DNA of 64,000 nucleotides from assembly GCA_947627635.1 (NCBI GenBank), contig CANQWT010000001.1, positions 18,325-82,324 of the forward strand, written 5' to 3'. The notes beneath the pieces are model-generated. The model was given only the letters and a program-made list of their open reading frames with translations, did not search any database and was not told the origin of the DNA. Made by a program: the position numbers and the translations under genes. This DNA comes from an uncultured Bacilli bacterium. Its GTDB lineage: Bacteria; Bacillota_I; Bacilli_A; RF39; UBA660. Shown one piece after another: positions 2,624 to 62,345 of the stretch. Position 1 is the first letter of the stretch. Every line of letters begins with the position of its first letter.

Positions 2624-3466
2624 ATGAACGGAATTATAGAATACAACGAAAAAATATTTGAAAACATTAAACACATTGACGAGTTTGGAAAGGAATTTTG
2701 GTATGCAAGAGAACTACAAAAAGTACTAGATTATAATGAGTGGCGAAAGTTTAAGGGAGTTATTGGAAAAGCTAAAGAAGCTTGCAAAAGTAGTAATATC
2801 AATACTTTGTACCATTTCATTGACACCGAAAAAATAATAAAAGTAGCTCAGGGTGCTCAACGAAAATTGGCAGATTATAAGCTATCACGATATGCCTGTT
2901 ACTTAATTGTTCAAAATGCTGACCCAAGGAAAGAAAGTGTGGCACTTGGACAAACCTATTTTGCGATACAAACAAGAAAACAAGAAATTAGTGAGAAAGA
3001 ATATAGTGAGCTTACTGAGGATGAAAAAAGATTTTATCAGAGAAATTTAACGAAGAAAGGTAATTTTTCTTTAAATCAAACTGCGAAAGATGCAGGAGTT
3101 AAGAACTTTGACCAATTTCATAATTTTGGATATAAAGGTTTATATAATGGTGAAACTGCAGATGATATTGCCAAGAGAAAAGGTCTAAGATATCGTGAAG
3201 ATATTTTGGATAATATGGGAAGTGAAGAATTGGCTGCGAATTTATTTCGAATTACTCAGACAGAAGCAAAGTTAAAAAGAGAAAATATAAAAACTGAAAA
3301 AAATGCAAATCATACACACTATACAATTGGAAGAAATATTAGAGAAGTTATTTTAAAAAATGGTGGGACAATGCCAGAAAACTTGCCAACCCCTAAGAAA
3401 AGTTTGAAAGAATTAGAAAAAGAAAAACGCGAGAAAATATTAAAAGAAAAAAGTTTTGAAAGTTAA
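2624..3466 (+). CDS. dinD: DNA damage-inducible protein D homolog
   Basis: Collinear with E. coli DinD from memory: WYARELQKVLDY vs WSARDLAPLLDY, LSRYACYLIVQNADP vs LSRYACYLVVQNGDP, GQTYFAIQTR, MGSEELAANLFRITQTEAKLKR vs MGSTELAANLFRATQTEEKLKR, GGTMPENLPTP vs GGTMPEELPTP. Confidence 0.8.
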   Translation: MNGIIEYNEKIFENIKHIDEFGKEFWYARELQKVLDYNEWRKFKGVIGKAKEACKSSNINTLYHFIDTEKIIKVAQGAQRKLADYKLSRYACYLIVQNADPRKESVALGQTYFAIQTRKQEISEKEYSELTEDEKRFYQRNLTKKGNFSLNQTAKDAGVKNFDQFHNFGYKGLYNGETADDIAKRKGLRYREDILDNMGSEELAANLFRITQTEAKLKRENIKTEKNANHTHYTIGRNIREVILKNGGTMPENLPTPKKSLKELEKEKREKILKEKSFES

Positions 3467-3625
3467 AAAATATCAAATAGTTTTAGAAACCCTTCAACTC
3501 CTAAGCTATCAATAATTATAAATCATTGGAAAAAGAAGTATTACATAAAAGTTTCTTTTCTAAATTGAAAACAAGGAAAAGATTTTGTATACTAAAATAG
3601 AAACAGAGAAAATGAGGAATGCAAA

Positions 3626-3934
3626 ATGGAAATCGATGAAAAATTAGAAGGATTACTAGATACTTTAAACAATTCAAGACTTGTAAAAAACTATCTAAAT
3701 GCGAAAGAAAATGTACTCAAAGATAAAGATTTGATAGAGCAACTACAACATTATCATCAAACACAAGACATTACTTTCAAACAACAAATTCTAGCCAATA
3801 AAACATATCAAATTTATCACGATGCAAGTTCTTGCTTATCCATTTTGATTTGGGGAATGAACTTGAAATTTAAAAATGGAAGGGATGATATTACATGCGG
3901 ATTATCCAAGGAAAGTATAAAGGCAGAAAAATAG
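3626..3934 (+). CDS. YlbF/YmcA-like small regulatory protein (tentative)
   Basis: Position corresponds to ylbF, upstream of rsmD (ylbH), with a Cys-containing C-terminus. Its 3' end overlaps the rsmD start by about 40 nt. Confidence 0.35.
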   Translation: MEIDEKLEGLLDTLNNSRLVKNYLNAKENVLKDKDLIEQLQHYHQTQDITFKQQILANKTYQIYHDASSCLSILIWGMNLKFKNGRDDITCGLSKESIKAEK

Positions 3935-4756: not shown

Positions 4757-5008
4757 GTGAAAGAAGAGATTACTCGCATCATTGACCCTGAAATCGAAGA
4801 GTTAGGTTTATGGGTAAGCGATGTTAAAAAAGTTCATCAAGAAGGTGTAATTGCTCTTGAAATTGAACTAGATAGTCAAGGTGTACTTGACCTTGATATC
4901 ATTACAAAAGCAACCGATATTATCAACCCTATTTTAGATAGAAATAATGTCATCGATGAAGAAATAGATGTGGTTGATATTTATGGAAAAAGTAAGGAAG
5001 AGGTGTAA
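4757..5008 (+). CDS. rimP: Ribosome maturation factor RimP, short form (N-terminal domain only)
   Basis: GTG start 5 nt after GGAGGTGG. EEITRIIDPEIEELGLWVSDVKKV...LEIELD matches the RimP N-domain. The stop lies immediately before nusA. The longer ORF from 4691 has no RBS and a non-homologous N-terminus. Confidence 0.6.
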   Translation: MKEEITRIIDPEIEELGLWVSDVKKVHQEGVIALEIELDSQGVLDLDIITKATDIINPILDRNNVIDEEIDVVDIYGKSKEEV

Positions 5009-5010
5009 AC

Positions 5011-6222
5011 ATGGATGGCAAAGAATTTATAAAAGCAGTTGAAAATATTGTCAAAGAGAAAAATATCGATAAAGCCGTTGTCTTTGATGCAATGAAACTT
5101 GCACTATCATCTGCTTATAAGAAAAATACTGGAAACAAAAACAGTAATGTAAAAGTCGTTATTGATGAAGATACTGGAGATATTAAAGTCTATTCTTTCT
5201 TAACCGTTGTGGAAGATGAAAAGATGACGAAAGAAGAATACGAAGACTACTTATTTGAACATTATACAGATGAAGACGATGAGGAAGAAGAAGCTGAAGT
5301 AGAAAAACAAGAGGAAGAAGCAACAGAAGATGAAGCATTAGAAAAACAAGAAGAAAAGATTTCTTTCTTTAATAAAGATACAGAAATCAAACTTTCTGAT
5401 GCTCGTAAAATTGATAAGTCCTTAAATATTGGAGATACCATTGATACAGAAGTTACTCCAAAAGACTTTGGACGTGTCGCAACTTCAACAGCAAAACAAG
5501 TTGTCATTCAAAAAATTCGTGAGGCAGAACGAAATAGTATCATGGACGAATTTGGAGATAAACAAGATGAACTTTTAATTGGAACTGTAGCCTTAGAAGA
5601 TACAGATAACTACTTTATTGACCTTGGAAGATGTAATGGAATTTTACCAAAGAAAGACATTATTCCAGGTGAGAAAATAGAGATGGGTTCACAAATTAAA
5701 GTTTATGTAACTAAAGTTGATAACAATGGACGAAACTTACTCATTCTCTTATCAAGAAGACATTATGGTTTTGTAAAACGCTTATTTGAACTTGAAATTC
5801 CAGAACTTTCTGATGGTAGTGTTCTTCTATATAGTGTCGCAAGAGAAGCAGGAGTTCGTAGTAAAGTTGCTGTATATTCTGAAAACTCTAAAATTGACCC
5901 AATTGGTGCATGTATTGGTGAAAAGGGAAGCAGAATTGCCAACATTATCACAGAACTTCATGGTGAGAAAGTGGATATCATTCGTTATGACAAAGACCCT
6001 GCAGTCTTCATTGAGAATGCTCTTTCTCCAGCGAAGGATTTAACTGTTGCAATTACAGATGCTAAAAAACAAGAAGCATTAGTCATTGCCGATGGAGATA
6101 ATTTCTCACTTGCTATTGGAAAACGTGGATTAAATGCAAGATTAGCTTCTAAATTGACAGGTTATAAAATAGATATTAAAACAAGAGAACAAGCAGAAGA
6201 GTTAGGCATCAATTTAAGATAA
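5011..6222 (+). CDS. nusA: Transcription termination/antitermination factor NusA
   Basis: S1 and two KH domains (GACIGEKGSRIANI, AIGKRGLNARLAS). Sits between rimP and ylxR-infB. Contains an acidic insert DEDDEEEEAEVEKQEEEATEDEALEKQEEK after the N-terminal domain. Confidence 0.9.
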   Translation: MDGKEFIKAVENIVKEKNIDKAVVFDAMKLALSSAYKKNTGNKNSNVKVVIDEDTGDIKVYSFLTVVEDEKMTKEEYEDYLFEHYTDEDDEEEEAEVEKQEEEATEDEALEKQEEKISFFNKDTEIKLSDARKIDKSLNIGDTIDTEVTPKDFGRVATSTAKQVVIQKIREAERNSIMDEFGDKQDELLIGTVALEDTDNYFIDLGRCNGILPKKDIIPGEKIEMGSQIKVYVTKVDNNGRNLLILLSRRHYGFVKRLFELEIPELSDGSVLLYSVAREAGVRSKVAVYSENSKIDPIGACIGEKGSRIANIITELHGEKVDIIRYDKDPAVFIENALSPAKDLTVAITDAKKQEALVIADGDNFSLAIGKRGLNARLASKLTGYKIDIKTREQAEELGINLR

Positions 6223-7001: not shown

Positions 7002-9122
7002 GTGAATGATATGACAGTTAAAGAGTATGCAGAAGATGTTTCAAAAACAGTAGGGGAAATTCTTGAGCTTTGTAAGTCACTATCTATTCCAGTTGATGAT
7101 GAAGAAAGCTTACTAACCGATGATGCAATAATTATTTTGGATAATCAAATTCAAGATGAAGAAGACTATGTCACAGGAGATGCTGAGACTTTAGCAAAAA
7201 TTGAGATGGATGAGAAGGCAGAAGCTCTTGCCGATATGGTTGTTCAAGAAGAAAAGAACTTTACGAAAGTCAAAAAGAAAAATAAGGAGAAAAAAGAAGA
7301 AGCTCCTAATTTTAAAGAAGAGCGAAAGAAACTTTATAAGCATCGTGAAAAGTTACAAAGTAATGAAAAAGATGTGGATGATACAGTTATTGTTTACAAA
7401 GATGGAATGACAGTCAAAAGTTTGGCAGATGCTCTTGCTGTTCCATCAAGTGAACTGATTAAAAAGCTCATGGGTCTTGGAGTAATGGCCACATTAAATA
7501 ATCCTCTTTCTTTTGAAAATGCTGAGATTTTAGTAGTGGATTATGATAAGACACTAAAGAAAGAAGAAACTCAAGATATTTCTAATTTTGAAAACTATGA
7601 AATAGAAGAAGATGAGAGCAATTTAGTAAAACGTCCTCCTGTTGTAACAATTATGGGACATGTTGACCATGGAAAGACAACTCTTCTTGACTATATTAGA
7701 AAAAGTCATGTTGCAAGTGGAGAAGCAGGAGGGATTACCCAAGCAATTGGAGCTTATCAAGCTTCTTATAAAGATGAAGTGATTACTTTTATTGATACGC
7801 CAGGTCATGCTGCTTTTACAGAAATGAGAGCCCGTGGAGCTTCGATTACGGATATTGTTATTATTATTGTGGCTGCAGATGATGGAGTTATGCCTCAAAC
7901 GAAAGAAGCAATTGACCATGCAAAAGCTGCGAAAGTTCCTATTTTAGTTGCTATTAACAAAGTGGATAAGCCAGATGCAAATGTTGAAAAGGTCATGACT
8001 GGACTTGTTGAAGCAGGACTTACTCCTGAAGAGTGGGGTGGAGATGTACTCGTTTCTAAAATTTCTGCGAAAACAGGAGAGGGTGTTGAAGCACTTTTGG
8101 AAAACATTTTGTTGGTTGCAGAAATGCAGGAATTAAAAGCAAATCCTAAACGTTATGCAACAGGTGCTGTTATCGAGGCACAAATGGATAAGCATGTAGG
8201 AAGTATCGCAAGTATTCTCGTTCAAAATGGAACACTTCGTTTAGGAGACCCTATTGTGGTCGGAACTTCTTATGGTAAAGTAAGAACGATGAAAAATGAT
8301 AGGGGAGAAGAAATTACTGAAGCGCTTCCATCAACTCCAGTTGAAATTACAGGGCTTTCTGTTCTTCCTGCTGCCGGTGATAAGTTTATGGCATTTGAAA
8401 CAGAAAAACAGGCAAAACAAATTGCTGAAGAACGAGCTCTTAGAGTGCGAGAAGAAGATACAAATAGAACAGGAATGAGCTTGGAAGATTTATTTGGACA
8501 AATTCATGAAGGACTAAAAGAAATCAATGTGGTATTAAAGACAGATGTAAACGGTAGTCTAGAAGCTGTTCGTAATTCATTAGAAAAAATTGAAGTCGAA
8601 GGAGTTCGTATCAATGTCATTCGTGGTGGTGTTGGAGCAATTACTGAAAGTGATGTTGTACTCGCTCAAGCAAGTCATGCGATTATTATTGGTTTCAATG
8701 TTCGTGGAAACTTAAAGGTCAATGAAATTGCCAAAGAATATGGAGTAGAAATTCGTCTTTATGATATTATTTATAAAGTTGTAGAAGATATGGAAAGTGC
8801 TATGAAGGGAATGTTAGACCCTGAATATGAAGAAAAAGTTATTGGAACTTTGGAAATTAGACAACTCTTTAAGTTTTCTAAAGTTGGAATGATTGCCGGT
8901 TGTCATGTAACATCAGGAGTTGTTAAAAATAACGCATCAGCAAGACTTATTCGAGATGGTATTGTTATTTATACGGGTTCTATCAAGACTTTACAACATG
9001 AAAAAGACCAAGTAAAAGAAGTCAAAAACAATATGGACTGTGGTCTTACATTATCAGATTTTCAAGATTATAAAGAAAATGATGTCATTGAAGTTTATGA
9101 ACTAATAGAAATTGAAAGGTAA
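7002..9122 (+). CDS. infB: Translation initiation factor IF-2
   Basis: GTPase motifs GHVDHGKTT, DTPGH, NKVD, and IF-2 domain architecture. Confidence 0.95.
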   Translation: MNDMTVKEYAEDVSKTVGEILELCKSLSIPVDDEESLLTDDAIIILDNQIQDEEDYVTGDAETLAKIEMDEKAEALADMVVQEEKNFTKVKKKNKEKKEEAPNFKEERKKLYKHREKLQSNEKDVDDTVIVYKDGMTVKSLADALAVPSSELIKKLMGLGVMATLNNPLSFENAEILVVDYDKTLKKEETQDISNFENYEIEEDESNLVKRPPVVTIMGHVDHGKTTLLDYIRKSHVASGEAGGITQAIGAYQASYKDEVITFIDTPGHAAFTEMRARGASITDIVIIIVAADDGVMPQTKEAIDHAKAAKVPILVAINKVDKPDANVEKVMTGLVEAGLTPEEWGGDVLVSKISAKTGEGVEALLENILLVAEMQELKANPKRYATGAVIEAQMDKHVGSIASILVQNGTLRLGDPIVVGTSYGKVRTMKNDRGEEITEALPSTPVEITGLSVLPAAGDKFMAFETEKQAKQIAEERALRVREEDTNRTGMSLEDLFGQIHEGLKEINVVLKTDVNGSLEAVRNSLEKIEVEGVRINVIRGGVGAITESDVVLAQASHAIIIGFNVRGNLKVNEIAKEYGVEIRLYDIIYKVVEDMESAMKGMLDPEYEEKVIGTLEIRQLFKFSKVGMIAGCHVTSGVVKNNASARLIRDGIVIYTGSIKTLQHEKDQVKEVKNNMDCGLTLSDFQDYKENDVIEVYELIEIER

Positions 9123-24149: not shown

Positions 24150-24800
24150 ACTTGAATATGATATAATGTGAAGCGTAATGGAAATGGCACACTATTCTAG
24201 TCAATTCCTTTATTACGAAGACGGGATTAAACCACCGTTAAAGAGCACATCTGTGAAACTTCTGGTGTTTGCTTCTTACGCCCAGTTTGGGGTGGATGCT
24301 GGAAGGTATGGATAATGGGTAGTCTATAATGGCATATAGATGAATCCCACTATCTTGGAGACCTAAACTTGTGAGATACCTATACGTGCTAACTGATGGA
24401 TATCTTACGACTTAGGTAGAACCTACTATGTGGCGAAAGTTATGAGTAGCGTAGCTTGTCTTGAGTGGAAAAGTTGGGATTTATGAGCTGACCTAATGAT
24501 TTGGCCAAATCGATTAGATAAACTGCATAATGAAATCTTTTCTGCAAAAAAGAATTAGTAATAAAGATTGGTGAGGAAATCTCCTAGAGTGATGTCGTTT
24601 GGGATTGCAGTGGGTACTAAGTGGTGATCAAGCCATACTTTAAGTATTCGACTTTCGTAAGGGGGAACCGCAGAATTGGTAACGATTCTGTAAAGAAGAG
24701 GGAAATCCTGCTTGACCTAAGGCCCAAAGTTTACCAAAGGATAGCCAACCATGATATTGAAATTAAAGTAACTTCGGTTGCTTTTTTTGTTTTTGTAAAT
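24150..24800 (+). ncRNA. Candidate large structured ncRNA (OLE-like?)
   Basis: About 650 nt with no credible ORF and clearly elevated GC compared with flanks (GGGGTGGATGCTGGAAGG..., GGGGGAACCGCAGAATTGG...). Immediately upstream, on the same strand, of a ~21 kDa 4-TM protein with a DxxxD motif. This is the arrangement described for OLE RNA and oapA. Confidence 0.4.
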
Positions 24801-42884: not shown

Positions 42885-44693
42885 CTAGAATTTTGGGTGT
42901 ATTACAATGGAAAAATTATTCTCGTAACCACGTCCGCCCTTATCTTTTTTATATTCTATATAAGATATAACAGACTTTAAAAGTTTGTTTTTCTTTTCTA
43001 TAGAATTAACTTTATTGTATGAATTTATTACTTTTTCTATTTTAGGTAATAACTTTTCTATACTATTTTTATTTAATTTAGATTGGTATTTATTTAATTC
43101 TTTTTCTGTATTTTTGATTCTATCTTTAATTACTTTTGTACGTTCTGTAAATTCTTTAGATGTATATATTCCTTGTTCTACTAATTCGTATGCTTTTTCT
43201 AGTTGTTTGTTATATTTCTCTAAATCTTTACTTAAAGAAATAGCCATAATATTATCTTCTTCCTCAGCTGGAATATATGTACTTAATAATTCTTTTTGAG
43301 TAGTAGCGTACTCTTTTAATCCGTTTATTACTTCTTTTTCAACGATAGAAAGATTAGAACCTATATTAGTACAATGAGCTTTAGAACATATTAAAGTGTC
43401 TTCGTGAGGGCTTATAATATTTTCTTCAAAAGTCATAATTGATTTATCAAACTCTGTTGTTGTTATATTTAATAAGTTTTTTAATTGTTCCCATTTATCA
43501 GCATAAGGAATAGTAAATTTATCTATAGTAGCTGAGAACCAATGATCTACGACACTTTTACTTATATGTAGTTCGTTAGCTATATCACGTAAACTATATT
43601 CTCCTTTATGTTCTCTTAAACATAGTCTCAATTTATCTTTATCGACTTCATACTTGCGTCTTAACTTTGGCTCTTGACCTTTAATTTCGTAATATGGTCG
43701 TCTTTGCATAGTTCTTCCGCAATCAGCACATTTTATCAAAGTAGCTAACGGATTCTGTAAATCAGTACCGTGTTTTGTACTTGTATTTCTAGGCTCTATT
43801 TTTTGTACTATATCAAACAAAGTTTGATCTATAATAGCTTCGTGTAATCCCTCGACTATAATAAGATCTTCTTTATTTCCTCTTTTACGAGTTTTTATAA
43901 TCTGACCGTTAACAAGACTTTTTTGTTGTTTATTATTATTCCACCTTATTTTCCCTAGATAGATTGGATTAGATAACATTCCTTTAATTGTAGACGGAGT
44001 CCATACATCAGACGTTTTAGGCTTAAAATCAGTTGTATTAAGCCAATTACATATTATATTATGTCCCATTCCGTCAGCTCTTTTTTGAAATATCTGTTTA
44101 ACAATTTCCGCTTCTTCTGGTATTATTTCTAAGGTAAAGCCTTTAGCGTATTTTATTTTTACTTTTTTATAGCCAAAAGGTGGCTCAGAAGCACAGTATT
44201 TTCCCTCTAGTACATTTGCAAGTCTTCCACGTTGCATACGCCTATTTATGGTTTTATATTCACGTCTAGACATAAATAATCCAAACTCGAAGTATTCTTC
44301 GTCTTCTTCACTATTAGGATCGTAGATTTTATTAAGAGTTATTATTTTAGTATTAGAGTATTTAAAAGCTTGAGCTACAACTCCTTGATCTTTAGCGTCT
44401 CCACGTGTAAGACGTTCTACTTCTACAACTAATATTCCGTCTACTTCGCCAGTTTCAATATTTTTAAGAATCTTTTGTATTTCTGGACGCTCTTGTATAG
44501 ATTCTCCAGATACAACCTCTTTATATATTTTACGAATTTTTATTCCTAGTTGTTTAGCTCTATCTTTTAAGAATTTTTCGTGTTGCTTTAACGTATCAAA
44601 TTTTTTAATTCGTTCCAATTCCATATCGGCACGAGATTTTCTTAAATAAACATCATATATTCCGTTTGGATCTAACGTAACAGTATTATACAT
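42885..44693 (-). CDS. Large serine recombinase (phage integrase, SprA/SpoIVCA-like class)
   Basis: N-terminal resolvase-type catalytic domain (YLRKSRAD...ILVVEVERLTRGDAKD), recombinase domain, Cys pair CADCGRTM zinc ribbon, and long coiled-coil C-terminus. Lies ~95 nt from the cotJC junction. Confidence 0.8.
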   Translation of the reverse strand: MYNTVTLDPNGIYDVYLRKSRADMELERIKKFDTLKQHEKFLKDRAKQLGIKIRKIYKEVVSGESIQERPEIQKILKNIETGEVDGILVVEVERLTRGDAKDQGVVAQAFKYSNTKIITLNKIYDPNSEEDEEYFEFGLFMSRREYKTINRRMQRGRLANVLEGKYCASEPPFGYKKVKIKYAKGFTLEIIPEEAEIVKQIFQKRADGMGHNIICNWLNTTDFKPKTSDVWTPSTIKGMLSNPIYLGKIRWNNNKQQKSLVNGQIIKTRKRGNKEDLIIVEGLHEAIIDQTLFDIVQKIEPRNTSTKHGTDLQNPLATLIKCADCGRTMQRRPYYEIKGQEPKLRRKYEVDKDKLRLCLREHKGEYSLRDIANELHISKSVVDHWFSATIDKFTIPYADKWEQLKNLLNITTTEFDKSIMTFEENIISPHEDTLICSKAHCTNIGSNLSIVEKEVINGLKEYATTQKELLSTYIPAEEEDNIMAISLSKDLEKYNKQLEKAYELVEQGIYTSKEFTERTKVIKDRIKNTEKELNKYQSKLNKNSIEKLLPKIEKVINSYNKVNSIEKKNKLLKSVISYIEYKKDKGGRGYENNFSIVIHPKF

Positions 44694-44694
44694 C

Positions 44695-44965
44695 TTACAC
44701 CTCCTCACTTTCTAATATTTTATCTACTTCTTTTTCATATTCGGCTATTTTTGATTTATCATAATTTTTTAAATGTCCTAGTTTATAATGTAATATTTCG
44801 TGTCTAAAATGACTTTTCTTTTTGTACGTCAGAAATAGAATCGTTAATTACTATATAAATACTATCGTCTAATTCTAAAATAAAGGCTCTAATTTTATTA
44901 GGTAACTTCATTATTTTTAATTTCAAACCGTATTTTTCGGCAATTTTCGACATTCTTTCGTACAT
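44695..44965 (-). pseudogene. ImmA/IrrE-family HEXXH metalloprotease (anti-repressor protease), apparently frameshifted at an A5 run
   Basis: N-terminal frame: MYERMSKIAEKYGLKLKIMKLPNKIRAFILELDDSIYIVINDSISDVQKEKSF*. The downstream +1 frame continues KKSHFRHEILHYKLGHL... (HEILH). Deleting one A from GTACAAAAAGAAAAGTC restores ...SDVQKKSHFRHEILH. RBS GGAGGTA precedes the start. Confidence 0.5.
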
Positions 44966-55889: not shown

Positions 55890-56363
55890 ATGGAAAACTA
55901 TTATAAGCAAATAGCGGATCTGTTATGTTCTAGAGAGCGTTTGAATACATTAAGAGATAGACAATCCGAAATATTCGATAAATACTTCCCTATAACAGTT
56001 CGATATACTGATTCCGTGTCTACTGGAGGAGAAAAGCAAGATAAAATGGTATCTTACATAGCTGAATTAGAGGAGTCAGGATTAGACAAAGAAATAAAAA
56101 AAATAATTGAAAAAATAGATAAACTACAAAATAGCATTTATCGTATGGAAATGATATTAAAGAATGTGGAAAATATATCAGGTGTAGAGAATTTAGAATA
56201 TAAAGTTCTTAAATTAAAGTATTATGAAAATAGAAATTATACTTTACAACAAATAGCTGATAAATTACATTATTCTTTAGATAGAATTAAACAAGTAAGT
56301 GCTGATGTAGAAAGAAAAATTAAAAGTAATTATTACACTGAAAATACACTAATAAAGTGCTAA
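55890..56363 (+). CDS. ArpU/RinA-like late-gene transcriptional activator (sigma-70 region-4-like)
   Basis: Size and position (just before the packaging module). C-terminal HTH-like NYTLQQIADKLHYSLDRIKQV. Confidence 0.4.
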   Translation: MENYYKQIADLLCSRERLNTLRDRQSEIFDKYFPITVRYTDSVSTGGEKQDKMVSYIAELEESGLDKEIKKIIEKIDKLQNSIYRMEMILKNVENISGVENLEYKVLKLKYYENRNYTLQQIADKLHYSLDRIKQVSADVERKIKSNYYTENTLIKC

Positions 56364-56384
56364 AATGATAATGTGGAATAATTA

Positions 56385-56912
56385 AAAATGGCTAGCTGAT
56401 TGCCCTCTGAGTATTGGAAAAAATCAGCAATATATCTCGGTAGCGGTGTGATAGTCGCACGGGGGTTCCATATTCCCCAGGAGAGGTGCAATTCCTACTA
56501 CCGAAACCAATATGCTAGTATGGTGGAAAAGAGACACGCCTATATTAGGTGGGTAACCGTGAGGAACCCGTGGGAGGTTGTAACTCTCTACTAGCTCCAA
56601 TTATGCTATTATTCATTATTTCGTATAGACCTAAGATGTCAGTAAGGTGGAAGTCCTTACAACAACTCCTTTCTAAGCTCTGGCTTATCGGCTTCTAATT
56701 GATAAGATACGTTTTATAACGTATTCTCGTGAGCGAACGGGGTTTCACGTTGGTTATGACAAACATACGCTAAACTATTAGTCGTAATTCTAGGTAAGTT
56801 AACGTAATGGTTAACCTCGGTTATTGCCTAGGAAAATAGTATTTATGGGTAAGAGAGGTTAAAGCCTTAAATACCCGCCACGCTAGTATCACACTAGCCA
56901 ACCCCTTTTTAT
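56385..56912 (+). ncRNA. Candidate large structured ncRNA in prophage (ROOL/GOLLD-class candidate)
   Basis: About 530 nt with no credible ORF and far more GC-rich than the phage flanks. Bounded by a long-range pairing GGCTAG (56390-56395) / CTAGCC (56895-56900). Internal perfect hairpins include GTTAAC-GTAATG-GTTAAC and GGGGTTCC...CCCC. A U-rich tract follows (CAACCCCTTTTTATTCTTTTTT). Confidence 0.45.
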
Positions 56913-57058
56913 TCTTTTTTAGATAAACTAAAAGCACTACTTATCTTAGGTAGTGTACTGGTAACATAAAAACAACCACTAGCAGGTGCACGGAATCGAG
57001 GGTGGGCTCGTGTATGTTATTGGTACAGTATCTATGATAAAATTATTATGAATCGGAG

Positions 57059-57271
57059 GTGCCTATTATGAGTAGAGGCGAGTTTGTAGAGAAAGTACAA
57101 GCCAAAGAAATAGTGAACGGAACAAAGTTCGAGGTATACGATAAGAATGATACTAAACTGGGAACGGTAGGAGTAATTGATTCGACAATAGTATATTTAG
57201 ATATGAAATCAGTTCCAAATGATTTATTCATAGGGGAATATACCTTTAAAGAGATTAGAGAAGAAAAATAA
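57059..57271 (+). CDS. Hypothetical phage protein, 70 aa
   Basis: GGAGGTG RBS. Confidence 0.3.
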   Translation: MPIMSRGEFVEKVQAKEIVNGTKFEVYDKNDTKLGTVGVIDSTIVYLDMKSVPNDLFIGEYTFKEIREEK

Positions 57272-57375
57272 TAATGGTAGATACTCTCCTCAATCTATAA
57301 GCTATGAGACATTACAATCTTACGTAGTGTCTTTTTTTTGTATAAGGAGGCGTTGCGTTATGCGAGAGCGATATT

Positions 57376-57636
57376 ATGAATTTAGATAGCTATATTAAAA
57401 AGTTTCTTATTAACTTGTCTTTATATAGTCAATACTTCGATATAACAATAATGACTTATGAAAGATTTAATAGTAAGTACAATACTGTCAATAGGAGTTT
57501 ACTACTCCAGTACAGTGAGCCGAACCCTAAAAAGAAAGACTCATATTTTCGTTATAAAGAATGGTATAGCAATAAAAGAGAGTTAGTACAGAGGTTGAAT
57601 GAATTATGGCTAAAAAGAAAACAGACAAAGAAATAA
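57376..57636 (+). CDS. Hypothetical phage protein, 86 aa
   Basis: ORF only. Confidence 0.3.
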   Translation: MNLDSYIKKFLINLSLYSQYFDITIMTYERFNSKYNTVNRSLLLQYSEPNPKKKDSYFRYKEWYSNKRELVQRLNELWLKRKQTKK

Positions 57637-60791: not shown

Positions 60792-62345
60792 ATGCAAGAC
60801 GATAAGAAATTACGAGAAATCTACGAGAATATAGAAGCTGATTTACTTCGTAATATCGCCAGTCGACTTGATATTGACGAGATAGACGGAGGTACAGTTG
60901 AGTGGCACACCAGAAAATTAAACGAATTAGGTATGTTAAGTTCTGAAAATATCAAATTATTATCTAAATACTCTGGAAAAACAGAAAAAGAAATAAAAAG
61001 TATGTTAAAAAAGTCTGGGTATGAAAATATAGAGGAGAAAGCTTTTAAAGAAGCGTATAAAATAGGAACTTTAAGCGAACAACCTATAGCTTTAATGAAA
61101 TCAGAATCGTTAAAGAATATTCTTAATACATCTGTTGCTAACTCTATTGATTCATTTAATTTAGTAAATACTAAAGCGTTAGAAAGTGCTAACGAAGAAT
61201 ATTTAAAAATAATAAATCAAGTATACTTAGAAACAGCACAGGGAATATATGACTACAGTACATCTTTAAGAAAAGCTACTACTCGTTTAGCTGAAAAGGG
61301 AATAACTGGAGCTACTTATATGCGTACTGACGGAACTCATATAAGAAGAACTTTAGAAAGTGCTGTACGTATGCAAATATTAACATCTACAAATCAATGT
61401 ATGACTAAAATGCAAGAGGAAAGAGCTAAAGAATGGGGCTCTAATTTAGTAGAAGTTTCTTCTCATATAGGAGCAAGACCTAGCCACGCTGAATGGCAAG
61501 GAAAAATTTATATGTTAGAGGGCTCTAGTGATAAATACCCTAACTTTTATCAAGCGACTGGTTATGGTACAGTAACAGGTTTAGGTGGAGTTAATTGTAG
61601 ACATACATTCTACCCTTATTTAGAGGGAGTTAGTGAAAAAACATATAAACACTATAACCTTAACGAAAATAAGGAACAATACGAAAAAGAACAACAACAA
61701 CGTCTTTTAGAAAGAAAAATTAGGGTTGAAAAACAAAAGATAATTGTAGCCGAAGAAACTGGCGATAAGTTAATGCTAGAAAAAGCTAGTATGAAATTAA
61801 AAGAACGTAGAGACGACTTAAAGAAATTCTTAGAAGAAAATAATCTTTTGGAAGATACTTCGAGAGAGTTTAAATACGGATTCAATCGTTCTATGTCTCA
61901 AAAAGCCTTAAATACAAGTCGTAGCGTTGAAAATAAAGCCAATATGATGTATAATTTAGGTAGTACGGAGAATAATGTTAAAGCATACATTAAAGACGCT
62001 CCTATTAAGGAAACAATTAGTACAACTTATGATTTAGAGAAATACAGAGATAGTAAATGGGAAAAACACGATCCAAATAGTAAAGGCTATGAAACTAACG
62101 CTAGTCAAGTAACTATCTCAAAACAAGAAACAATAGATTTAATAAAAAAATATGCTGGTAAAGGTGCGTTGTTAAGAAATCCTAACGGAACTTGGAATAA
62201 ACAAGAACTAATTCATTCTGATACTGTTGTTGGTAAAGTATTAGGCGTTAATAATAAGTGGGTAGAAACTAAAACATTTAAAATACATTACTCTAAACGA
62301 GGAGTACATATTGTACCTAGTTTAAGAGATACAAAGGAGAAGTAA
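60792..62345 (+). CDS. Minor head protein (Phage_Mu_F/SPP1 gp7-like) with extra ~190-aa C-terminal domain
   Basis: Mu F core: TRLAEKGITGATYMRTDGTHIRRTLESAVRMQILT...EVSSHIGARPSHAEWQGKIY. Confidence 0.65.
   Translation: MQDDKKLREIYENIEADLLRNIASRLDIDEIDGGTVEWHTRKLNELGMLSSENIKLLSKYSGKTEKEIKSMLKKSGYENIEEKAFKEAYKIGTLSEQPIALMKSESLKNILNTSVANSIDSFNLVNTKALESANEEYLKIINQVYLETAQGIYDYSTSLRKATTRLAEKGITGATYMRTDGTHIRRTLESAVRMQILTSTNQCMTKMQEERAKEWGSNLVEVSSHIGARPSHAEWQGKIYMLEGSSDKYPNFYQATGYGTVTGLGGVNCRHTFYPYLEGVSEKTYKHYNLNENKEQYEKEQQQRLLERKIRVEKQKIIVAEETGDKLMLEKASMKLKERRDDLKKFLEENNLLEDTSREFKYGFNRSMSQKALNTSRSVENKANMMYNLGSTENNVKAYIKDAPIKETISTTYDLEKYRDSKWEKHDPNSKGYETNASQVTISKQETIDLIKKYAGKGALLRNPNGTWNKQELIHSDTVVGKVLGVNNKWVETKTFKIHYSKRGVHIVPSLRDTKEK

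Follow-up and report, generated by a model that had tools for sequence, protein, structure and literature searches.

What kind of element fills the long noncoding gap that separates the late regulator of a prophage from its packaging genes, and what might it do for the phage that carries it? The question is raised by a locus in an uncultured Bacilli bacterium (contig CANQWT010000001.1), in a segment of 64,000 nucleotides (nt) that is called the window here. Comparison of the locus (56390-56957, plus strand) with its homologues in related prophages reveals that it is a genuine, conserved, structured noncoding RNA encoded on the plus strand of the prophage, and not a degraded gene. At least three of its modules in the window (M1, M2 and M5) are derived from tRNAs. 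The locus is a mosaic whose modules can be exchanged for one another, and we give about an even chance (roughly 0.5) to the view that it forms a phage array of tRNA mimics that is probably cut by tRNA-processing enzymes.

A conserved structured RNA between regulator and packaging genes

The gap extends for 695 nt (56364-57058), from the stop of an open reading frame (ORF) of 157 amino acids (aa) at 56363 to the next conserved ORF at 57059, and it contains no conserved ORF. A first-pass annotation of this DNA had described the region as the longest noncoding stretch of the prophage. This is the case when it is measured as the longest internal gap between plus-strand ORFs of at least 60 aa within the window's share of the prophage and an embedded 64-aa ORF is set aside. 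The G+C content, which had also been singled out, is indeed far higher than that of the phage flanks (0.416 over 56390-56923, with a peak of 0.48, versus 0.29-0.32). Neither the 64-aa ORF (56400-56594) nor four other small ORFs have a match in Pfam or PHROGs at E≤1. The former, rightly held to be implausible, is interrupted by a 164-187-nt insertion in two relatives (L002, L003) and half deleted in two others (L023, L034). The insertions and deletions that separate the relatives do not come in multiples of three; they interrupt the ORFs, and their borders are module borders. With neither a conserved frame nor protein homology for any of the five ORFs, the degraded gene that the annotation had named as its own counter-explanation found no support. 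The plus strand of 56385-56960 folds at -170.3 kcal/mol (z = -4.0, with 0 of 100 shuffles equally good), versus z = -1.35 for the minus strand.

Homologues were collected by DNA-pattern scans, by protein-guided scans and by looking up contigs that encode relatives of the regulator. Some 35 loci with ~20 distinct element sequences were found, all in related prophages; the scan of genome contigs gave one true homologue (L008) and three chance matches, and that of metagenomes four true homologues and three chance matches. The search for relatives and for covariation that had been recommended at the outset was thus rewarded with ~20 distinct homologues and many compensatory changes. A blastn comparison of the region with 50,697 GenBank phage records yielded no match, which indicates that no cultured phage carries the element. 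The order of genes is the same in every locus: a regulator with a Sigma70_r4 domain, the element, an optional ORF of 67-76 aa, an ORF of 86-89 aa, terS and terL. Phages whose regulators are 30-35% identical have only ~100 nt between regulator and packaging genes, and the element is therefore an accessory insertion in one phage clade. In metagenomes the terminase of this clade has several hundred near-identical relatives (336 members in its 90%-identity cluster), so this group of phages is not rare.

The mean nucleotide identity over 11 phages is 91% in M1 and 86% in M4, compared with 75% in the neighboring regulator gene. In a 10-sequence alignment RNAalifold predicts 160 pairs, and compensatory changes occur in 32 of them. 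Conservation above that of the adjacent gene, together with such changes, points to selection on a single-stranded fold and not to a decaying gene or junk; the same changes and the asymmetry of the strands argue against a purely DNA-level site. The parts of the locus, all on the plus strand, are the following.

55890-56363, plus strand: gene of the late regulator (157 aa; Sigma-70 region 4 domain, PF04545, 27.9 bits; PHROG 36, transcriptional regulator)
56358-56382, plus strand: promoter-like block AAAGUGCUAAAAUGAUAAUGUGGAAUAAUUAAA with two extended -10-like motifs, overlapping the end of the regulator ORF
56390-56957, plus strand: the noncoding RNA element, flanked by the prophage's late regulator and its packaging genes
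56396-56427, plus strand: leader hairpin H0, a 7-base-pair (bp) stem and a variable loop with a conserved UGCC
56437-56509, plus strand: M1, a tRNA-like cloverleaf, from RF00005 alignment, pair counts and fold
56514-56599, plus strand: M2, a five-way junction with the layout of a class II tRNA, from a structural parse and from a fold in which the minimum free energy (MFE) structure equals the centroid
56600-56676, plus strand: M3, an AU-rich 5' part, a T-loop-like hairpin and a pyrimidine motif, from the alignment
56677-56839, plus strand: M4, a run of five or six hairpins, from RNAalifold
56847-56880, plus strand: M5 in its minihelix form, from the fold and from the tRNA scaffolds in the same slot of relatives
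56882-56920, plus strand: constant 3' end, a hairpin (56882-56898) and then a tail (56900-56920)
56935-56955, plus strand: last conserved hairpin, possibly part of the RNA, CACUAC...GUAGUG, with one compensatory pair (AU to GC in L002) and wobble changes elsewhere
57306-57339, plus strand: intrinsic terminator, after an optional small ORF (57059-57271) and directly before the ribosome-binding site of an 86-aa ORF that precedes terS

A mosaic of modules, several with tRNA ancestry

M1 occurs in every homologue. It opens with a 7-bp acceptor stem; a D-like hairpin and an anticodon-like arm come next, then a T-loop hairpin (UGCAAUU) and an unpaired AACCA. The invariant anticodon-like loop UUCCAUAUU has CAU at the anticodon position. 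The alignment of M1 with the Rfam tRNA model RF00005 runs from the first to the last of the 71 model positions and scores 18.5 bits in the window (E 0.058 in a small search) and 27.5 bits in L023 (E 2e-4), where the T arm is GGUUCGAGUCC; the gathering score of this model is 29 bits. Among 13 variants the cloverleaf is 96% paired, with 8 pairs changed on both sides and 0 of 500 shuffles as good, and it collapses in controls in which the pairing was slid. Taken alone, the module has the cloverleaf as both its MFE and its centroid structure (z -2.66). In addition to C33, C8 and a D loop that lacks GG, M1 has a U31-U39 opposition, G55, a loop UCCAUAU, a T stem of 3-4 bp and two nucleotides before CCA. 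Neither M1 nor M2 combines the U33 loop, usable anticodon and D-loop/T-loop tertiary pairs of a canonical tRNA. The deviations of M1 (C33, U31-U39, C8, the missing GG, the two nucleotides before CCA) mark it as a mimic and not a standard tRNA. A pairing of its anticodon-like loop with the 5' flank of M5 was considered and discarded, as it is not conserved.

M2 begins with a 7-bp acceptor stem, a connector UG and a 3-bp D-like stem with a 9-nt loop. The position of the anticodon arm is taken by a capped stem of 4-5 bp, which ends in a UAU triloop in the window and in GNRA tetraloops (GAAA, GUAA) in most relatives; in L022 there is a 38-nt hairpin instead of this short arm. A long hairpin resembling a variable arm follows, then a 5-bp stem with a 7-nt loop, then U and CCA. 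When we parsed 9 variants, covariation was seen in four pairs of the acceptor stem, one of the D stem and three of the variable arm, and two acceptor positions show 3 pair types each. The 3' end is NCCA in 6 of the 9 and GCCU in the other 3. M2 is absent from L023, L034 and L047, and Rfam has no match for it. When isolated, M1 and M2 each fold into a junction of their own with a free NCCA tail, the MFE structure being equal to the centroid.

In the window the slot of M5 holds a minihelix, an acceptor-like stem GGGUA/UACCC around a T-arm remnant AGGUUAAAGCCU followed by GCCA, which together with the next hairpin folds with z -3.57. The larger occupants of the slot in L047, L052 and L050 score 36.7, 35.3 and 34.0 bits with RF00005, all above the gathering score. 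In these big forms the D arm, the T arm and the acceptor stem are canonical and NCCA is present, and the 17 positions of the anticodon arm are replaced by ~88 nt with further T-arm-like hairpins. For the long form of M5 in L001, Rfam gave no tRNA match. In L022 the slot contains two real tRNA genes, Ile(UAU) with 65.6 bits at 4980-5056 and Ile(GAU) with 62.3 bits at 5060-5136, which stand in place of M5, the 3' hairpin and the tail. Both tRNAs serve Ile codons, AUA among them, in keeping with the AT-rich genomes of phages. The suggestion that the element occupies a position where phage tRNAs sit is borne out both by this replacement of the 3' module and by the tRNA derivation of several modules. 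The units that resemble tRNAs are separated by spacers of 4-5 nt, and T-arm-like hairpins (for example, TAAGGG.TGCGAAT.CCCTTA) number 1-3 per element in relatives, versus a background of 0.04 per kb in the window.

The remaining modules have another character. M3 has a hairpin with a 7-nt loop (UGGAAGU in the window, UGCGAAU in relatives) and a conserved pyrimidine motif CUCCUUUCU at 56666-56674; its isolated fold is weak (z -0.07), and it is absent from L028 and L040. A pyrimidine motif (C)UCCUUUCU is seen at module ends in the window (56666-56674) and in relatives (for example, 'ACCCTCCTTTCTA' in L028), and in L050, L051 and L052 it lies directly after an acceptor-like stem, where CCA would be. 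We take this motif to resemble the anti-Shine-Dalgarno 3' tail of 16S rRNA (CCUCCUUUCU). The idea that M3 mimics helix 45 of 16S rRNA with this tail was rejected: CUCCUUUCU is conserved, but the GGAA loop is not. The first hairpin of M4 has an 8-bp stem and a 7-nt loop, CUUCUAA (CUUAUAA in relatives), in the form of an anticodon loop. RNAalifold on 11 variants of this module gives 49 pairs, 16 of them with compensatory changes. Relatives have an insertion of 40-97 nt in its second hairpin; L040 lacks the module, and in L051 and L052 another sequence takes the place of its 5' half. Extra modules of 165-250 nt, designated MX, MY and the insert after M1, occur in L034 (~3190-3420), L028 (~3440-3650), L052 (~7650-7900) and L003 (5775-5960). 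Rfam has no match for M3, M4, MX, MY or the insert after M1, and no obvious tRNA shape was found in MX, MY or this insert.

Eleven module combinations of 330-910 nt, framed by constant ends, emerge when the variants are compared.

Window: M1-M2-M3-M4-M5(mini)
L001, L005, L011: M1-M2-M3-M4-M5(long)
L002 and the L003 group: layout of L001 with a 164-187-nt insert after M1; the L003 group also with 40-97 nt inside M4
L022: M1-M2(long arm)-M3-M4-tRNA-tRNA
L023: M1-M3-M4-M5
L034: M1-M3-MX-M4-M5
L028: M1-M2-M4-M5'-MX-M5
L040: M1-M2-M5, ~330 nt
L047: M1-M3-M4-M5(big)
L050: M1-M2-M4-M5(big)
L051, L052: M1-M2-MY-half of M4-M5(big)

Whole modules are present, absent, swapped or reordered even among close relatives, and constancy is limited to the promoter block, to H0 and M1, and to the 3' hairpin and tail (L022 is without the tail too). 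Such turnover is at odds with the original idea of a single ~530-nt RNA that a terminal helix encloses. The proposed helix itself fares no better: its 5' side, GGCTAG at 56390, varies (GGCTAGC, GGCTGGC, GGCTGAC, GGCTTGT, GGCTCGT) without compensation on the 3' side, CTAGCC at 56894, which becomes CTAGAC in L023, L034 and L040. The 3' CTAG pairs locally, in the hairpin GCTAGT-ATCAC-ACTAGC (56882-56898). Long-range helices suggested by RNAalifold (UAAAA/UUUUA, GG/CC, AACCA/UGGUU) were set aside as well, for they are without covariation and a partner is missing in some variants; AACCA/UGGUU cannot form in L040.

Known families offer no ready home for the element. Rfam 15 was searched at gathering thresholds over the whole window and at E≤10 over 56200-57150. 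The sole gathering-score match in the window is an OLE RNA, located elsewhere, and the region gave two chance matches only (Dictyostelium class I RNA and CRISPR-DR). ROOL (RF03087) and GOLLD (RF01998), compared through their Rfam models, reach the gathering score neither in the window nor in any of 12 related loci, and at E≤10 the region shows no match to them either; membership in either, which had been suggested, is thus not upheld. The models of group I and group II introns match nowhere in the window or the region, Rfam finds no Y RNA, and ARAGORN calls neither a tRNA nor a tmRNA in the window, with the same outcome for most related loci. A resemblance of the 5' end to the P4 region of RNase P RNA can be dismissed, since the segment lies in the variable loop of H0 and no RNase P model matches at E≤10. 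A repeated GGTAG..ACT, sought as a protein-binding site, has a single exact copy in the region. The element is possibly a new class of RNA, of another kind than the one first envisaged.

Probable transcription and processing, and the rival explanations

The promoter-like block, in which a promoter scan found CTGAAA-17-TAAAAT with an upstream TG, comprises the motifs TGCTAAAAT (56358-56366) and TGTGGAATAAT (56372-56382). It is near-invariant in all homologues despite spanning a stop codon and, judged by its sequence, is probably the start of the transcription unit of the RNA. The 5' leader hairpin H0 is likewise under constraint, with compensatory changes in 4 of its 7 pairs and 100% of the cells paired. 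On the 3' side, the hairpin GCUAGU-AUCAC-ACUAGC and the tail AACCCCTTTTTATTCTTTTTT (in RNA letters, AACCCCUUUUUAUUCUUUUUU) are invariant or nearly so in all homologues but L022. The U-rich tail that had been reported does exist, as a pyrimidine-rich tail at 56900-56920, but a scan did not call it a canonical intrinsic terminator. The last conserved hairpin is kept in L022, where it lies 3' of the tRNAs.

The only terminator-like site that a scan found in 56200-57400 is the strong intrinsic terminator at 57306-57339, kept in all relatives, also in those without the small ORF. It abuts the ribosome-binding site of the first late gene; late transcription must therefore pass through it, and read-through or antitermination is seemingly needed. 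As there is no canonical terminator at the tail, the RNA would either belong to the late transcript as its 5' part or be a unit ending at 57306-57339, which is a possible end of the transcription unit. An antiterminator pairing between the last hairpin and this terminator (CACUAC with GUAGUG) was examined and rejected, being not conserved and lost in terminators of the L016 type. Upstream of the small ORF there is a further conserved extended -10-like motif, UAUGAUAAAAU (57033-57043, plus strand), with the variants UAUGAUAUAAU, UAUGAUACAAU and UAUGACAAGAU and preceded by GUACAGUAUC; L016-type phages, which are without this ORF, have lost the 3' half of the motif.

If the locus is an array of tRNA mimics, it could operate as follows. 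Transcription of the plus strand would begin at the promoter-like block at the end of the regulator gene, and the transcript would consist of self-contained modules between constant ends (H0 and M1 on the 5' side, the hairpin and C/U-rich tail on the 3' side). What its tRNA-shaped modules have in common is the 'top half' of a tRNA (the T arm, the acceptor stem and, in most cases, NCCA); the anticodon arm is dispensable. The top half is the determinant recognized by RNase P, by 3'-end processing and trimming activities, by CCA-adding enzymes and by several tRNA-binding proteins. Its retention suggests that the precursor is probably cut at M1, M2 and M5; in combination with the independent folding, the 4-5-nt spacers and the turnover of cassettes, it makes a processed precursor the best supported model. 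The products would be several stable, non-decoding tRNA mimics and an M3-M4 piece released between them, and the mimics would presumably engage host or phage factors that bind tRNAs. The turnover of cassettes and the real tRNA-Ile genes found in the slot suggest a role in a phage-host conflict over tRNAs. As decoys or sponges, the mimics might draw off nucleases that target tRNAs or enzymes by which the CCA end is modified; alternatively, they might add to the tRNA pool. The decoy function is plausible.

More speculatively, and with odds that we place well below even, a late-expressed and rapidly reshuffled cassette array of anticodon-less tRNA mimics could be a counter-defence or host-takeover device that soaks up factors binding the acceptor end or the elbow. 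RNase P and 3'-end processing would release the mimics, and the CAU loop of M1 would have a specific partner of its own. Candidate targets are toxins acting on tRNA by modification of the CCA end or cleavage of the acceptor stem, nucleases of abortive infection that are directed at tRNAs, aminoacyl-tRNA synthetases to which the anticodon does not matter, and T-box leaders.

A number of points weigh against the array of processed mimics. The start and the end of the transcript, and any processing of it, are things that we infer from sequence. M1 in the window lies below the Rfam tRNA threshold and receives no ARAGORN call, and its D loop without GG (no G18G19), its C33 and its C8 are not those of a tRNA. 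For M2 and the long M5 of L001, which have no Rfam tRNA match, the likeness to tRNA is a matter of structural parse only. NCCA is not universal, as is seen from the GCCU of M2 in 3 of 9 variants and from ACCG, ACAG or ACUG in M5 of some variants. M3, M4, MX, MY and the insert of L002 and L003 are not tRNA-like. The loops of M1 and M2, invariant or strongly conserved, imply specific partners. All members of the family belong to a single clade of phages that are close relatives, and the covariation is drawn from ~10-13 distinct sequences. Finally, long-range tertiary contacts between modules would favor a single large RNA.

Such a single large ornate RNA, an analogue of ROOL and GOLLD that belongs to a new class, is in our estimation a rather improbable account, although it is the strongest of the rivals. 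Its tRNA-like parts would be mere building blocks of a possibly self-assembling molecule whose core is conserved and whose peripheral domains vary. A length of 330-910 nt, the abundance of GNRA tetraloops and T-loops, the location in a prophage, the tRNAs in one relative and the 5' and 3' ends that are constant in nearly all variants agree with it, as does a context like that of ROOL and GOLLD near tRNA islands (PMC12286853, PMC5737381). Against this, there is no ROOL or GOLLD match, the modules fold individually, and the universal parts are limited to H0 with M1 and the 3' hairpin with its tail; M2, M3 and M4 in the middle are dispensable, as is evident from L040 (M1-M2-M5) and from L023, which lacks M2. 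Moreover, two of the long-range helices of RNAalifold have no covariation, and one (AACCA/UGGUU) is impossible in L040. A cis-acting leader of the late operon, which would control read-through at 57306-57339 into terS and terL, seems to us less probable still. It would have a layout like that of lambda pR'-6S RNA-tR' with Q or of the HK022 put RNAs, and its tRNA-like parts might sense signals related to uncharged tRNA or recruit factors. The placement right behind the late regulator and ahead of the packaging genes, the conserved terminator right before the ribosome-binding site of the first late gene and the absence of a canonical terminator at the element's own 3' end speak in its favor. The loss or exchange of most modules and the replacement of the 3' part by two tRNA genes are not expected of a regulatory leader, however, and phages with related regulators manage with ~100 nt at this place; nor is there a conserved alternative pairing with the terminator, as CACUAC/GUAGUG is lost in the L016 type.

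We consider it quite unlikely that the modules, M1 above all, are working non-canonical tRNAs, M1 being a tRNA-Met or a tRNA-Ile2(CAU) for AUA/AUG codons. M1 does align with the tRNA model from end to end, has CAU where the anticodon would be and is followed by NCCA, and a relative has tRNA-Ile(UAU) and tRNA-Ile(GAU) in the same locus, but the sub-threshold scores, the negative ARAGORN result and the irregularities of M1 (C33, U31-U39, C8, no G18G19, a 3-4-bp T stem, two nucleotides before CCA) speak otherwise, and M2 and M5 have no anticodon loop at all. The least credible of the alternatives, to which we attach very little weight, is that the locus is a decaying tRNA cluster or other junk with no function, or else a DNA-level site (pac, cos or protein-binding) with an RNA structure that is only incidental, or a degraded protein gene. 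A tRNA ancestry with sub-threshold scores might suggest pseudogenes, and the element is adjacent to terS, next to which pac sites often lie. Yet its modules are better conserved than the neighboring gene, their stems are kept by compensatory changes and the fold signal is strand-specific, and a degraded gene is contradicted by the lack of any protein family match and by the non-triplet indels that cut the ORFs.

Some further features of the surroundings may be recorded. Downstream of the element, Pfam and PHROGs identify a helix-turn-helix protein of the terS type and the large terminase. On the other side of the prophage, a large serine recombinase with Resolvase and Recombinase domains (42885-44708, minus strand) is probably the prophage integrase that marks the left boundary. 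A Phage_min_cap2 protein (286 bits; 60792-62345, plus strand) bears a C-terminal Ntox50 'bacterial toxin 50' domain (77.6 bits), and such a joining of a toxin domain to a head protein is unusual. The OLE RNA mentioned above is full length (RF01071, 354.5 bits, model positions 1-616) and lies at 24168-24764 (plus strand) in the host-chromosome part of the window, near the genes of IF-2 and PheRS-beta, which places the host among the OLE-bearing Firmicutes. The homologous locus L008 (QHMG01000017.1), with the element and packaging genes, comes from a metagenome-assembled genome labelled 'Candidatus Melainabacteria', and a related regulator from one labelled 'Bacilli bacterium'. This second label and the OLE RNA in the host of the window make the Melainabacteria binning of L008 doubtful.

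Relation to known systems

Phage tRNAs and RNAs such as ROOL and GOLLD are both familiar and their roles poorly understood, and the locus sits between the two. In a single slot under purifying selection, real tRNAs, scaffolds with a replaced arm, bare minihelices and non-tRNA modules exchange with one another. If the modules are released, the element would be a natural 'polycistronic tRNA-punctuated' RNA and a candidate RNA-based anti-defence system. The variants with different sets of modules constitute a comparative series for what each module does, and the locus may hint at the origin of the large phage RNAs that are linked to tRNA islands. To our knowledge, no multi-module array has been described from a late-operon leader of a phage, and the literature searched for such elements contained no description of this modular tRNA-like phage RNA. 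In a large survey of structured phage RNAs, only short tRNA-like candidates of at most 151 nt are listed (PMC10690425).

ROOL and GOLLD are RNAs of phages or prophages that lie near tRNA islands; GOLLD has a variable half, sometimes with tRNAs in a linker (PMC12286853, PMC5737381). The ROOL model has six multistem junctions as well as three pseudoknots in ~580 nt, and that of GOLLD a conserved 3' half. Like them, the element is borne by a prophage, several hundred nt long and highly structured; the window has no tRNA genes, and two tRNA-Ile genes lie inside the element of L022. Unlike them, it matches neither model and consists largely of exchangeable modules, several of tRNA origin, with constancy confined to its two ends. 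With the tRNA islands of phages it shares tightly packed, tRNA-sized cloverleaves on one strand, an encoded CCA and a set of units that varies between relatives. Most units here cannot decode, however, and modules unrelated to tRNA (M3, M4, MX, MY) are present as well.

Mimics of tRNA that act outside translation include mascRNA and the stable 'species 1 and 2' RNAs of the T4 tRNA cluster. To these can be added the bacterial YrlA and Y RNAs, the tRNA-Other of Bacillus cereus and viral tRNA-like structures (PMC4201824, PMC3399842). The modules resemble such mimics, which are handled by tRNA-processing enzymes, in being non-decoding and in keeping the acceptor/T-arm geometry; the known examples are single units in other contexts, in contrast to the multi-unit, shuffling array in a late-operon leader that is described here. 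In its layout, finally, the locus recalls lambda pR'-6S RNA-tR' and the RinA/ArpU systems, where a late regulator and a promoter are followed by a leader that extends to a terminator and by the late or packaging genes; activators of the RinA family act on a promoter upstream of terS (PMC3152322). The leader of the phages studied here differs from those of lambda and RinA in being 0.6-1.1 kb long, modular and tRNA-like, and phages with distant regulators do without it.

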